Positions 42,139 through 46,257 of a stretch of 64,000 nt of DNA are shown one piece after another (within the stretch, counting starts at the first letter, position 1; each line of letters begins with the position of its first letter). The notes beneath the pieces were generated by a model, which worked only from the letters and a program-made list of their open reading frames with translations, was not told where the DNA came from and ran no database searches. Source of the stretch: a bacterium (GTDB taxonomy: Bacteria > UBA9089 > JAHJRX01); the NCBI GenBank assembly GCA_018830565.1, contig JAHJRX010000043.1:9755-73754 (forward strand), written 5' to 3'. The position numbers and the translations under genes were made by a program.

Positions 42139-45100
42139 TTAATTTTTAATTTTTCTCCTTCTGAATCCCAAAGCAATAAGCCCAATAAATACCAGAAATC
42201 CAGCAAGAAACAAATACGGGATTGGGGCAGATGAGCCCCCTGCAGCAGCAACATCCTTCATCTCATAGCCCTTAATAACCTTTGCTGTCTTCCCGCCGGG
42301 TGTGGATGTCTTCCTTTCGGGTGCTCCAGTTTGCCTGTTTACCTTCTGCTTTCTATCTTCTGCCGACTGCCGACTGCCGACTGCCTCCTGCCTACTGCTT
42401 ACTGCCGACTGCCGACTGCCATCTGCCTGCAAACCGCGTATCGCCCTGGTTGCCTTCATAAGCCCATTGGCATCACCCTTTAGCCCAGGCACAGACATCA
42501 ATACCCCTGTGGTAAATTTTGTCAGGGATGGATTGTTGCAGGTATGGTCGCAGCAGGCAAGACCAACCTCTTTTACGGTTTCTGCATATTCTTTGGCAAG
42601 CGTTTCTATTACCCTTTCGTCAGGCTTCCAGTATTTCTTTCTCACTGTCTCAAGCATCCTGGCTACAATGGATTGATATGCCCACATATTCTTTGAGCCG
42701 CGAAACATATCCTTTATCCCCAACTTGTTTCTATCCAACACATAGGTCTCATACATCTCGTTCCACTTGGCGGCATCGACAGCCTCAGGCACGGTTACCT
42801 GCCATCCCCAGAGGTGTCCTGTTACCATATCTATAAACCTTGTCCCTGCATATCCTTCCTTCATCATTGCCTTTATCCATTCGGGGTTCAGATACCTTGT
42901 CCTCATCTCCCTGCCCATCATCTTTTCAAGGGTTTCTTGCTTGGGCATCCTCGGATTTGCCATGTTGGTAACATAAACCTCTGGTGTCTTACCGTCTATT
43001 GCCCGAATTGCCATTGCCGTACCGCCAAGATATTGGAAGAAATCGTCGTTATCTAATGTTTGATAGACATTTCCTGAACGGCTGTGAACAGCCATCTTAG
43101 AGCCTGAAAGGGCATTCTTAAATACCTCAAGGCTAATATCCTTGTAATCCCTCTCTATTTTTTCTCCCCAGAATCCCTGTCCATAGAGATGGCTCATTCT
43201 CATAAAATACACATCAGCTACCTGCTTTTCATTATCCCATGTATCAGACAAAGGGATGACAGTAGATAGATTTGTTCCGTAAGCACCTGAAGGCACGGTA
43301 AATAATCTTACCCGTGCTATCCGCTCTGCCATATCCTCATGAATACCCTTTTTCATCAGCATCTTTTTTGTTCTCAGCACATTTGCCCTTAAAATATTGT
43401 CATCCTCATCCTGCTCTTTTGCCAAGCTCACAGCCTTGTCAAGTAATACCATAAGGTTGGAAAATAAATCCCTGTAAAGCCCCGATGGAACAATGGTTAC
43501 ATCTATCCTTCCCCGTTCGAGTTCTTCCCTTGAAATAGCCTCAACCCCGATAACCTTTCCCCTTTCATCCCATTTTGGCTTTATTCCCATAAGATACATA
43601 ATCTGCGATTCCATCACCCCTTCATGCCTTATAGTCTCCACGCCCCATAGATTAAAGGTGAGTTTGTCAGGGTATTCGCTGTGCCTCTGCTTGTAGCCTT
43701 CAATCAATTCCTTTGCCAGATTTACCCCCATTTTATATGCATCCGGTGAGGGTATCTTGCGCGGGTCAAAGGAATAGAAGTTTTTACCTGTAGGAAGTGA
43801 GTCTGGATTCCTTATGGGGTCGTTACCCTGCCCTGCTGTGATATATCTACCGCTAAGGGCAGCTATAAATGAGTCAAGTTCCCTTTGTCCGCTTATGGCT
43901 ATCCTCTCCTCCAATTCTGCCAGCCGTCTTTCCTTCTCTTCCTTACCCAACCCCTCCTCAATGGAAAGAATTGCCTCTGCTGTGCTTTTCCTGTATTTCT
44001 CCTCTGGAGATTTTCCAAAGGTATGCAATCCAAATGGTGTTTGCTTCTCTGCTATCTCCTTTATGTAATGTTCGAGTATCTCTACCTCTTTTCCTGACTT
44101 TATTGCCTCAATCTTCAGGTCAGTCAATATGCCCATCCTTAGGCTGAGTTTATTAATCTCTTCAAGCCTCAACTCAGCCAATGTCTGGCTTTTATCATTT
44201 GCCACAAGATAATCATTGATAGATGCTGCCAATTCTTTTAATTCATTGTTCAGCCCTGCCGTATCAAATGGCGGGGTCATATGGTCAATGATAACTGCCA
44301 TGCCTCGCCTCTTTGCCTGTAGCCCCTCACCAACATCATCCACAATATAGGGATAGATATTTGGCATGTCCTGTATCAATATCTCTGGCGGGTCTTCATT
44401 GGTAAACCCAACCTCTTTACCTGAAAGCCATTCATGGGTGCCGTGAGTGCCGATATGAGCAACTGCATCTGCCCCAAAGGTTTTCTTGAGCCAGAGATAA
44501 AAGGCTATGTATTGATGGTGCGGCGGAAGGGTAACGGCGTGATATAATTTTTTTACATCCTGTTCCCAGCCGCGGGAGGGTTGTGGGGTAAAGAGTATGT
44601 TGCCGTATCTTACCTGAGGGATAACAATATTCCCCTGCCAGAGCATAATTTTATTATTTTCTATTGTGCCCCAGCTTTTAAGAACAGACGCCTTGAACCC
44701 TTTAGGCAGTTCCTCAAACCATTGCTTATAGACATTAATAGGGATAAGTACTGCCTGACCACTTTCGGCTAATTTGTCAATCTCTCCTTGAGCCCAATTG
44801 CCAATATTCCTGCCATAGCTATGAATATCATTAAAGAGTTCATCCTTGCTTTTTGGATGGTTTTCTCCCCCTGTATCGTATCCCTCTGCCTTTAACCGGT
44901 TCAGTATCTCAAGCAGACTCTCAGGCAGGACATTAAGGTATGATGCCCCAATATTCTGTTTGCCGGGCGGATAATTATAATAGATAATTGCCACCTTTTT
45001 GTCTTGGTTTGGTTTATTCTGAAGATTTATCCATGCCTTAACCCTGTCTGTAAGCATTTTTATCCGCTCAAGGATAGGCTGCTTCCTTATGTATTCAATC

Positions 45101-46257
45101 CCTGTCTCCCTATCAATCATTTTTTCCTTTGAGGCAATTACTGTGGGCTGAATAATTCCAGCCATTTCAGGGATGGCTACCTGCCATGTCCGCTCAAGAA
45201 TATCCAGCCCAACAGGGGATTTTCTCCATTCATCATTTGATTGGGTATAAAGGGTTATGGCGTCAATAACAGGCACATTGAGCCGACAAAACAATGGTAC
45301 CGCCCTTTGAGCGTCCACACCTATTTTCAGAGACATGCCGACAACGGCATCTATCCGTCCCTTGCCTCTTTCATCAAAGAAAAATCTCTCAATCGCATTT
45401 TCAGATGGATAGCCGTACACAGGCAGAACATTAAAGCCTTCTTTCTCAAGACTTGCTATAACCGCATCTACATGTGCCATGTTATCAGAATCAAGTGAGC
45501 TTTTATAAAAGGTGAGCCCTATCCATTTATTATGGGCATACGATTGGTGTGATTGAGAGTAAGATTTCATAAATTCGTCAAAATTATCCGCAGCCCTTTT
45601 TCCTCCTTTTTCCTGCTTAAGATAAATGCCAAAATCAGGAACAATCAAAGGCTTTTTGTACTTAATATTGAGTCCAAAATCCCTGCTTAAAACAAAAAGT
45701 ACCATATTTTTTATATTTTCAAAGCCATTCTCCTTGTAGTATAGCCCAACCATTTTATCGTCTATAATTCCCATATTATGATGTTCTTTGGTGTAGCTCC
45801 CACCCAGCCCATAGACCTTACCGCCATTTTTTATTACCTGTTCAATATAGGGCTTTGCCAATTCTACTGCCTGTCTGTCCATTATAAGGAGGAAAAAGAC
45901 GACCCTTGAATTTGCAATATCTTTTGCAACACTTGGGTTATTCTTAATGGAATGGGTTGTATAGACATTGAAGCCTATTTTTTCCCTCTTAACATCTTGC
46001 GGGTATTCCTTTTCTATTGCCTTGACTACATCTATGGCTATTTTTGAATGGCTGTCGCCCATGAGAAAGCTGACCGTTAGCGGCTGGGCATGGGCAGGGC
46101 ACAGGAAGCAGGGGAACAGAATCCAGAATCCAGAAGTCAGAATCCAGAATAAAGATAGAAACAATCGGACTCCTGTATTCTGACTCCTGACTCCTGACTC
46201 CTGTCTCCTGTCTTCTGTATTCTTCTTCTTATTCCGGTACATAAACCACCTTTCCAT
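42139..46257 (-). CDS. CobN/Mg-chelatase H-family protein, paralog 1, with C-terminal TM anchor (possibly extracytoplasmic)
   Basis: 1372 aa with CobN-homologous blocks throughout (compare paralog 2). The C-terminus [27 protein letters not shown] is a TM segment plus basic tail. The N-terminal 60 aa, including the hydrophobic signal-like segment [12 protein letters not shown], are encoded by both arms of a heptamer-repeat hairpin, so the true start and the signal peptide are uncertain. Confidence 0.8.
46117..46222. repeat. heptamer-array hairpin (CAGAATC / TCCTGAC arms) inside the 5' end of the CobN-like ORF
   Basis: cagaatccagaatccagaagtcagaatccagaat ... attctgactcctgactcctgactcctg. Confidence 0.75.

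Follow-up and report, generated by a model that had tools for sequence, protein, structure and literature searches.

The window analysed here is a stretch of 64,000 nucleotides (nt) of bacterial DNA (assembly GCA_018830565.1, contig JAHJRX010000043.1, positions 9,755 to 73,754). On its minus strand, at 42139..46257, lies an open reading frame (ORF) of 1372 codons that encodes a protein of the CobN/Mg-chelatase family, with an N-terminus and a linker written in repeats of seven-nucleotide units (heptamers), as the original prediction had described. Membership in the CobN/Mg-chelatase superfamily is given by Pfam PF02514 (1051 bits, gathering cut-off 24.5). The gene falls below all CobN/ChlH equivalog cut-offs of NCBIfam, the best model being NF004645 (954.7 vs 1619); TIGR02257 (646 vs 822) and TIGR02025 (675 vs 829) are among the others. 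The conserved CobN core was proposed to begin directly after the signal, and this holds: position 6 of model NF004643 corresponds to residue 65 of the 1372-residue ORF, and a second CobN gene in the window, paralog 2 (56119-60081), matches this model from the first residue of its product. A BLASTP alignment of the two paralogs begins only at residue 173 of the CobN-like protein and residue 113 of paralog 2.

Probably, the gene is a periplasm-facing, membrane-anchored branch member of the class-I chelatase superfamily of CobN, ChlH and HmuS, in which the signal and anchor are ancestral and the repeats act as in-frame padding. Its features are the following.

42139..46242, minus strand: coding sequence (CDS) of a membrane-anchored HmuS/BtuS-like CobN-family protein, 1367 residues plus stop, from the conserved ATG
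46229..46242, minus strand: 14-nt overlap ATGTACCGGAATAA with the upstream DUF2149 gene; start codon 46242-46240 within the last DUF2149 codons (..YVPE and stop), stop at 46231-46229
46087..46242, minus strand: predicted Sec-type signal peptide, residues 1-52, with n-region 1-26, h-region 27-48, c-region CPAHA and a cleavage site between AHA and QP
46168..46223, minus strand: 5' arm of the hairpin, purine-rich (CAGGAGA/CAGGAGT/CAGAATA)n, translated; an insertion relative to the ortholog P0009
46117..46150, minus strand: 3' arm of the hairpin, pyrimidine-rich (GATTCTG/ACTTCTG)n, translated as most of the h-region; only two units in P0009
42226..42486, minus strand: low-complexity juxtamembrane linker, residues 1253-1339, variable, with a conserved block before it, the anchor after it and a conserved KGYEM motif inside
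42360..42428, minus strand: in-frame (CAGTCGG)n array; Tandem Repeats Finder (TRF) reports CTGCCGA x8.7 at 42360-42420/42428; missing in P0009
42142..42225, minus strand: C-terminal membrane anchor with basic tail RRRKIKN; helix and tail are found in 98 of 109 orthologs

The repeats and the hairpin are real and non-random. At the N-terminus, TRF finds CAGAATC x4.9 at 46117-46150 and GACTCCT/CTCCTGT x6-7 at 46168-46223, and the arrays score between 54 and 90. Identity at a lag of seven nucleotides reaches 32/35 at the N-terminus and 31/35 within the linker, compared with 11-17/35 in 190-nt windows from the core of the gene. The two N-terminal arrays are inverted with respect to each other, so that, as had been noted, the reading frame passes through both arms of an imperfect hairpin (46116-46154 and 46173-46211; 39 nt, 72% complementary, 18 nt spacing). 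This region has a predicted mRNA fold of -65.9 kcal/mol, whereas its dinucleotide shuffles give -51.4 +/- 4.5 (z -3.2; 1/200 as good). Because a polar segment followed by a hydrophobic one pairs somewhat by composition alone, codons were also shuffled separately inside the n-region and the h-region; the hairpin is still exceptional under this segmental shuffle (z -4.0; 0/150 shuffles as good). The CTGCCGA heptamers of the linker are likewise read in frame ahead of the anchor, as residues 1275-1295 of the 1367-residue protein, with an extent of 42360-42428 rather than the 42350-42432 first assigned to them.

The translation start

The first ATG of the ORF (46257, MERWF...), at which the original prediction opened the protein, lies inside the upstream DUF2149 gene. 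A second ATG (46242-46240, MYRNKKK...) follows 15 bases downstream in the string ATGTACCGGAATAA, whose TAA is the DUF2149 stop. We compared the 45 ortholog loci whose contig includes the 5' end, which range from Nitrospirota-like metagenome-assembled genomes (MAGs) to Trichlorobacter and Verrucomicrobia. In 45/45 the corresponding ATG, embedded in ATGTNCCGGAATAA spanning the DUF2149 stop, is in frame, and in 45/45 the protein begins with M, then C, Y or F, then R or L, then N. The overlap ATG is also invariant in a four-way DNA alignment of relatives. By this comparison the likely start is the ATG at 46242, not that at 46257, and its overlap with the DUF2149 stop suggests translational coupling. 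The product of this CDS is identical to NCBI MBU2599628.1 (P0121).

Public annotations of the gene conflict: NCBI gives 1367 residues from MYRN (P0121, MBU2599628.1), and the gene calls of the Joint Genome Institute (JGI) and ENA give 1307 residues from MGDSHSK (P0123). The shorter form corresponds to a start at the internal Met of FLMGD, which would make the protein cytoplasmic, the hairpin an untranslated intercistronic element and the signal peptide the annotation artefact that had been suspected. Apart from the JGI/ENA calls, this reading can draw on the resemblance of the hairpin to an intergenic heptamer hairpin after cbiO. The FLMGD Met, however, is replaced by Leu in most orthologs (LLLGD, ..SLLLGD..) and therefore cannot serve as a general start. 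None of the 45 loci has lost the open frame or the overlapping ATG, the hydrophobic core and the AxA-like site are conserved, and a C-terminal helix with a basic tail would make little sense on a cytoplasmic CobN. When 41900-48900 was scanned for terminators and promoters, the stretch from the hairpin to M61 contained no sigma-70-like promoter, and the number of promoter-like sites matched chance (14 vs 13.8 expected). An internal start is scarcely credible on this evidence.

The strongest argument for translation of the arrays comes from their length variants. The array-bearing relatives have at least nine N-terminal coding lengths or array architectures, from 138 to 243 nt, and all are stop-free and in frame with the conserved ATG, which would be unexpected for an untranslated spacer. 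The arrays are therefore almost certainly translated as part of the protein. The same observation bears on a start, sole or additional, at the TTG of codon 27, in which case the purine-rich array, with three AGGAG units, would be a leader rich in Shine-Dalgarno (SD) sequences, or a translational enhancer, rather than an n-region. The arrangement AGGAGTCCGA-TTG has ideal SD spacing, a translational role has been proposed in Beggiatoaceae for heptamer arrays directly 5' of start codons (PMC4679880), and one ortholog locus (L006) has an in-frame ATG after its array, at which one gene call starts (P0008, MSRWIFII). Against this, the product would be without a charged n-region, the TTG is not conserved (locus L001 has no start codon there), and every array variant keeps the upstream ATG in frame and stop-free. 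We regard the TTG start as very unlikely.

The long form is thus the one supported in the annotation conflict (1367 vs 1307 residues), and the choice alters the predicted compartment of a 150-kDa enzyme. Such repeat-coded N-termini are handled inconsistently by gene callers and homology tools.

Predicted export signal and anchor in the orthologs

Read from the ATG at 46242, the first 52 residues have the sequence properties of a Sec-type signal cleaved by signal peptidase I: a positive n-region (net charge +5; grand average of hydropathicity, GRAVY, -2.2), a 22-residue hydrophobic h-region (GRAVY +2.0) and small residues at -3/-1. Sec export and cleavage between AHA and QP would follow from these properties. 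Two other signal types were considered and rejected from the sequence. A Tat (twin-arginine translocation) signal does not fit, the RR pair being 13 residues from the core with no twin-arginine motif beside it, and a lipoprotein signal does not fit as no lipobox is present.

The ortholog set comprised the 120 best homologs (59-94% identity), of which 117 have the N-terminus and 109 could be used for the C-terminal test. Three features were scored: a hydrophobic 11-mer (Kyte-Doolittle >= 1.9), an AxA-like site at most 18 residues from the conserved (L/M)GD strand, and a simple helix-plus-basic-tail at the C-terminus. The original prediction had allowed for orthologs without an N-terminal hydrophobic segment; the opposite was found, with a hydrophobic 11-mer in 110/117. 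The AxA-like site stands just ahead of the (L/M)GD strand in 109/117, typically as AHA before EP, and a C-terminal transmembrane helix with a basic tail is present in 98/109.

The C-terminal order is shared by almost all orthologs: a conserved block, the variable linker, APDGxGKKVEGYEMQD, SSAPIPYLF, the hydrophobic helix and an R/K tail. The linker varies in all orthologs (174-285 nt across loci) between flanking motifs that are conserved. The C-terminal module at residues 1229-1360 (window 42163-42558) is invariant across orthologs, with SSAPIPYLF directly before the helix. Searched against the NCBIfam models of C-terminal sorting signals, the 43 residues at the end of the protein gave sub-threshold scores throughout (MYXO-CTERM 17.6 vs 20, LPXTG 13.6 vs 15.9, PEP-CTERM 7.6 vs 16).

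These comparisons address a de novo origin of the export signal and of the linker or anchor by repeat insertion, which would have relocated a formerly cytoplasmic CobN, as the original prediction had offered as one reading. The segments in question are real and almost certainly translated, repeat units make up most of the n-region and about half of the h-region here, and the cytoplasmic paralog 2 begins exactly at the first position of the mature part. The proposed origin is the part that does not stand. In orthologs from Geobacterales, Syntrophales, Thermodesulfobacteriota and other groups, spread over several phyla, the N-terminal extension and the C-terminal anchor occur with lag-7 identity at background (10-18/35), and features present in orthologs without heptamer periodicity cannot have been created by the repeats. 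HmuS and BtuS1/2 have likewise been described as periplasmic, with membrane segments at the N- and C-termini (PMC12583661, PMC6460266). P0009 has a normal signal without the 5' arm, and the anchor (PIPYLF...RRK) is conserved and not repeat-encoded. Creation by the repeats is accordingly very hard to sustain. The export signal and tail anchor are real, almost certainly translated and, judged from the array-free orthologs, old and ancestral to the clade; all that the repeats did was to lengthen or overwrite the n-region, the h-region and the linker.

Repeat turnover, coding logic and the hairpin

Comparison with relatives indicates that the arrays are fast-turnover, lineage-specific in-frame indels at two tolerant sites. 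P0009 (locus L068), 73% identical, has the short ordinary signal MCRNKLKLSLFLFWILFPCSLSFAHT and is missing both the 5' arm and the 63-nt linker array. In it, ATGTGCCGGAATAA leads almost directly to the hydrophobic core, with two GATTCTG units against about five here. P0002 (L001), 80% identical, has arrays at both sites made of other units (CAGGGGT, TTCTGCA/TTCTACA, CAGTCAA/CAGTCGG). With a lag-7 periodicity of 22/35 as the minimum, 14 loci carry an N-terminal array; with a minimum of 24/35, 14 carry a linker array, and all array-bearing loci belong to the Nitrospirota-like part of the family. At the peptide level, a seven-residue periodicity is enriched at lag 7 only, often in the h-region (SVFCLLF-type peptides from TTCTGTC units) or the linker (ESGVRSQ, EDRGQKT, LEVRSQK). 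In some orthologs (L008, L011, L012 and P0029, P0038, P0039, P0043) a different, longer palindromic element occupies the site after the start, also in frame, where it reads ..LLWQQKRHSRESGNPEKKWIPCQARNDKIGLHE.. and stretches the n-region to 50-70 residues.

The composition of the units may account for the sites that they occupy. Because 7 and 3 share no factor, a heptamer array gives one seven-residue peptide in any frame. Purine-rich and related units translate to polar peptides (CAGGAGT to QESGVRS, CAGAAGT to QKSEVRS, GACAGAA to DRRQKTE, CAGTCGG to QSAVGSR), and pyrimidine-rich units to hydrophobic ones (GATTCTG to DSGFWIL, TTCTGTC to FCLLSSV). Since purine-rich units are polar and their pyrimidine-rich complements hydrophobic, the 5' arm can serve as the +5 n-region, and the 3' arm can supply the hydrophobic core. 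An exact complement of CAGGAGT or of CAGAAGT would bring in a TGA, so a perfect hairpin would not stay open; this would explain why the arms are only 72% complementary and why the 3' arm consists of stop-free GATTCTG. We propose that heptamer arrays were inserted or expanded in frame in this and related Nitrospirota-like MAG lineages at two tolerant sites, directly past the start codon and in the juxtamembrane linker. Purine-rich units, which give an Arg/Gln/Ser/Glu-rich peptide, would suit an n-region or linker, and pyrimidine-rich units, which give a Phe/Leu/Ile/Trp-rich one, an h-region. The overlap of the DUF2149 and CobN-like genes leaves no intergenic DNA and may have confined a junction-seeking repeat to the first codons. 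The gene would then be an example of frame-independent heptamers and their complements being absorbed into coding sequence that is constrained by composition, not sequence.

The mRNA hairpin is most likely a tolerated by-product that at most dampens or couples translation. The scan of 41900-48900 flagged nothing at the hairpin, which has no U-tract, and an Rfam scan of the whole window found no RNA family there and no cobalamin riboswitch. Its only hit is a large bacterial signal recognition particle RNA at 20493-20758 on the plus strand (RF01854, 161.6 bits), in the low-GC part of the window. A loop motif ATTGTTTCT shared by this hairpin and the one after cbiO was set aside, as three matches against 1.6 expected in the window are not significant.

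A regulatory role of the arrays and hairpin could take three forms: a slipped-strand switch that turns the gene off (N-terminal array), one that releases the protein from the membrane (linker array), or a hairpin that couples translation to that of DUF2149. A seven-nucleotide unit is not divisible by three, and a change of one unit (+/-1) in the N-terminal array gives an early stop, the same change in the linker array a stop at residue 1298 with loss of the anchor. Hairpins recur in 5/42 orthologs, and the Neisseria opa genes offer a precedent for coding repeats in a leader-peptide region. Perfect runs, however, are just two to three units long, no U-tract terminator is present, and the hairpin is not kept in the 80%-identical L001 (z +1.3). 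Copy numbers are identical in three independent assemblies. At the assembly level, the N-terminal arrays of the window, L067 (ENA) and L072 (JGI) are the same, as is the linker array in the window and L067. One metagenome scan for copy-number variants, with variable gaps across both arms, returned one extra contig only, again identical. The copy-number polymorphism that marks opa-like contingency loci is thus not seen among the three assemblies compared. The 94%-identical P0001 was discarded as a gauge of repeat stability, since, apart from a few mosaic patches, the two contigs hardly differ (about 100% identity). Selection of the repeats as regulators is, on balance, unlikely. The fullest version of the idea is something of a long shot: both tracts would work as slipped-strand switches for a periplasmic enzyme of metallo-tetrapyrroles (off, or tethered to free at 1298), with the hairpin gating translation relative to the DUF2149/ExbD-like partner. 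If it were true, a unit change in the signal tract would turn the protein off, and one in the linker tract would yield a free periplasmic enzyme.

Several patches of the CobN-like gene differ between the window and the near-identical contig L067: identity is 63-77% at 45200-45600 and 90-96% at 44200-45200 and 42800-43200, and otherwise about 100%. These mosaic patches suggest recombination within the head and neck domains. Past CobA, L067 runs into a Cas gene (PF09484) rather than the genes of the window, and GC content in the window steps at about 34 kb, from 29-35% (1-34000) to 39-48% (34000-64000); together these suggest a transferred island or an assembly join.

All strong heptamer arrays are confined to the GC-rich cobalamin/cobalt supercluster. 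Apart from those of the CobN-like gene, the in-frame arrays of the window (CbiO N-terminus, CbiM-CbiN junction, two loops of paralog 2) are without exception read in the polar orientation. CbiO starts with an ATG that overlaps the stop codon of CbiQ (ATGGAAGATGTGA; window 41176-41225, minus strand), and the next 12 codons, SEYRSQESEVRR (41176-41214), form a one-armed heptamer array, a repeat-encoded extension on a cytoplasmic ATPase. In the ORF at 62613-63755 (minus strand), a (GACAGAA/GTCAGAA)n array at 62899-62999 (..EVRIQKSEYRSQNIGDRSQKTEDGRQKTEYRSQN..) connects in frame a CbiM domain (residues 33-253) with a CbiN-like part of two helices (NF002780, E 0.059); this could be either a repeat-mediated CbiM-CbiN fusion or a CbiN with a repeat-encoded n-region. 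Paralog 2 (56119-60081) has the in-frame arrays (AATTCGC)n at 58019-58050 and (ATTGCGA)n at 59553-59576, mutual reverse complements 1.5 kb apart. They encode NCELRIANCEF, within a 20-residue insertion relative to the CobN-like gene, and SAIRNSQS. Untranslated inverted heptamer arrays occur after cbiO (40241-40340), after the CobN-like stop (42035-42135) and at 40079-40131, and opposed 8-mer arrays, CGCAGAGA (46601-46624) and CTCTGCGC (46741-46763), flank the stretch that separates the MotA/ExbB gene from the DUF2149 gene.

Gene neighbourhood and comparison with known systems

The genes around the CobN-like gene are as follows.

48029..48847, minus strand: TonB-family protein (PF03544, TIGR01352)
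47323..48024, minus strand: DUF2162 multi-pass membrane protein (PF09930, 193.7 bits), always first in the cassette
46772..47326, minus strand: MotA/TolQ/ExbB-family proton-channel protein, HmuU family (PF01618)
46229..46567, minus strand: DUF2149 protein, HmuV family (PF09919, 108.6 bits)
40341..41980, minus strand: CbiQ (41213-41980) and CbiO (40341-41225), the T and A components of a cobalt energy-coupling factor (ECF) transporter, immediately downstream

The cassette is flanked on one side by a CbiM(N) gene, a TonB-dependent receptor, CobN-ChlID and BtuFCD-like genes, and on the other by CbiQ, CbiO, cbi methylases, CbiG and CobA. The TonB-dependent receptor is 14 kb from the cassette here and adjacent to it in orthologs. 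In Trichlorobacter, Thermodesulfovibrionales and Loosdrechtia, the cassette DUF2162-MotA/ExbB-DUF2149-CobN-like adjoins a TonB-dependent receptor, CbiZ, CbiMNQO and cbi genes.

By analogy with HmuS and FeoB, the function is most likely a periplasmic (de)metallation of a cobalt tetrapyrrole linked to the proton motive force and TonB, or a hand-off of cobalt to CbiMNQO. After export by the Sec-type signal (charged n-region, hydrophobic core, AHA before QP), the catalytic body of about 1,200 residues would reside in the periplasm, a disordered linker would lead to one C-terminal helix, and the RRRKIKN tail would be cytoplasmic. We know of no enzyme for periplasmic (de)metallation of cobalt or corrinoids, for which this widespread and uncharacterised sister clade of HmuS, with its TonB/ExbB-like cassette beside CbiMNQO, CbiZ and cbi genes, is a candidate.

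Several points weigh against the picture of a cleaved, periplasmic corrinoid enzyme with a merely tolerated hairpin. Export, cleavage and topology are drawn from sequence rules and the homolog literature, and the corrinoid/cobalt function from the gene neighbourhood only, with no cobalamin riboswitch in the window. The 22-residue h-region is long for a cleaved signal and could be an uncleaved signal anchor, as described for HmuS. TTG codon 27 sits 5 nt past the AGGAG of the last repeat unit and is a possible second initiation site. N-terminal hairpins are also over-represented in the ortholog family: under the segmental codon shuffle, 5/42 loci have z <= -3, with strong hairpins in L002, L003, L010 and L035 (z -3.1 to -6.2), two of them without heptamer periodicity, and several further loci at z about -2.4 to -2.8. 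This excess could reflect a permissive site that has repeatedly received palindromic insertions or inverted duplications, or selection for structure past the coupled start.

The same cassette type, located between cobalamin biosynthesis clusters, is represented by the cobN-exbB-exbD-tonB cluster on Geobacter lovleyi pSZ77 (PMC3403914), which is flanked by TonB-dependent receptors, has a CobN without a CobS/CobT partner, and was described as having an 'exact biochemical role unknown' (PMC3403914). The Trichlorobacter orthologs are 59-60% identical to the CobN-like protein. Unlike the gene studied here, Geobacter-type orthologs have short non-repetitive signals (MCRNN plus h-region) and non-repetitive linkers.

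Canonical cytoplasmic CobN/ChlH is exemplified by paralog 2 with its ChlID (54145-56112). It has the PF02514 body in common with the CobN-like protein at 28-31% identity, is without signal, linker and anchor and, unlike the CobN-like gene, scores above a CobN equivalog cut-off (NF004646, 2055 vs 1468). Canonical CobN/ChlH proteins are cytoplasmic and work with an AAA+ motor (CobS/T or ChlI/D). The CobN-like protein does not conform, having a predicted signal and anchor, and the sole ChlID gene adjoins paralog 2, not the CobN-like gene.

The closest characterized relative is HmuS, the heme de-chelatase of Bacteroides thetaiotaomicron with a single membrane helix at each end (PMC12583661; PDB 9d26). 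HmuS is the best PDB match (497 bits, against 439 for CobN and 408 for ChlH), and the extra C-terminal module aligns to HmuS only. The CobN-like protein shares with HmuS and with BtuS1/BtuS2 of B. fragilis (PMC6460266) single N- and C-terminal membrane segments, here predicted, and a predicted periplasmic body. HmuS H538 (HxGTHG) is conserved as HIGTHG, residues 596-605 aligning to HFGTHGSLEF, in a motif that is superfamily-wide. The heme ligands Met-79 and His-254 are not matched as a pair: His-254 aligns to Leu-305, and Met-79 to Met-121 of a conserved IMDR motif with low posterior probability. The Met-rich insertion of HmuS (about 690-890) is without counterpart, the 9d26 alignment skipping from HmuS 689 to 890. 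The MotA/ExbB and DUF2149 genes here correspond by family to hmuU and hmuV, respectively, as these are annotated (PMC11681262). Relative to hmuYRSTUV, MotA/ExbB and DUF2149 are likewise adjacent, no HmuY was seen here, and the gene order is T-U-V-S, with DUF2162 in the position of T, rather than S-T-U-V. The HmuS operon serves heme uptake, whereas the cassette here lies within cobalt and cobalamin genes, and the padding of the termini with heptamer repeats is unlike HmuS. On sequence grounds, the gene appears to be a new member of a recognised, uncharacterised HmuS-like sister clade.

With regard to the repeats, two known systems are comparable. The opa genes of Neisseria carry CTCTT coding repeats in the leader-peptide region, in long and perfect tracts that cause phase variation. 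The likeness is a tandem repeat, not a multiple of three, that encodes the hydrophobic part of a signal peptide; in contrast to the opa tracts, perfect runs here are two to three units and copy number is constant in three assemblies.

Cyanobacteria carry short tandemly repeated repetitive (STRR) heptamers. These and the TAACTGA repeats of Beggiatoaceae (PMC4679880) have in common with the present arrays tandem 7-nt units, placement at gene junctions and just 5' of starts, and varied units, and the coding-frame consequences of such repeats have been discussed (PMC4679880). The present arrays differ in their units (CAGGAGT, GATTCTG, CAGTCGG, GACAGAA and others), in often forming inverted pairs, and in lying in frame inside genes, and the host lineage is neither a cyanobacterium nor a member of the Beggiatoaceae. 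In-frame padding of a signal peptide and a linker by heptamer hairpin repeats is an unusual variant of STRR-like and leader-peptide coding repeats, a curiosity rather than a new export mechanism.

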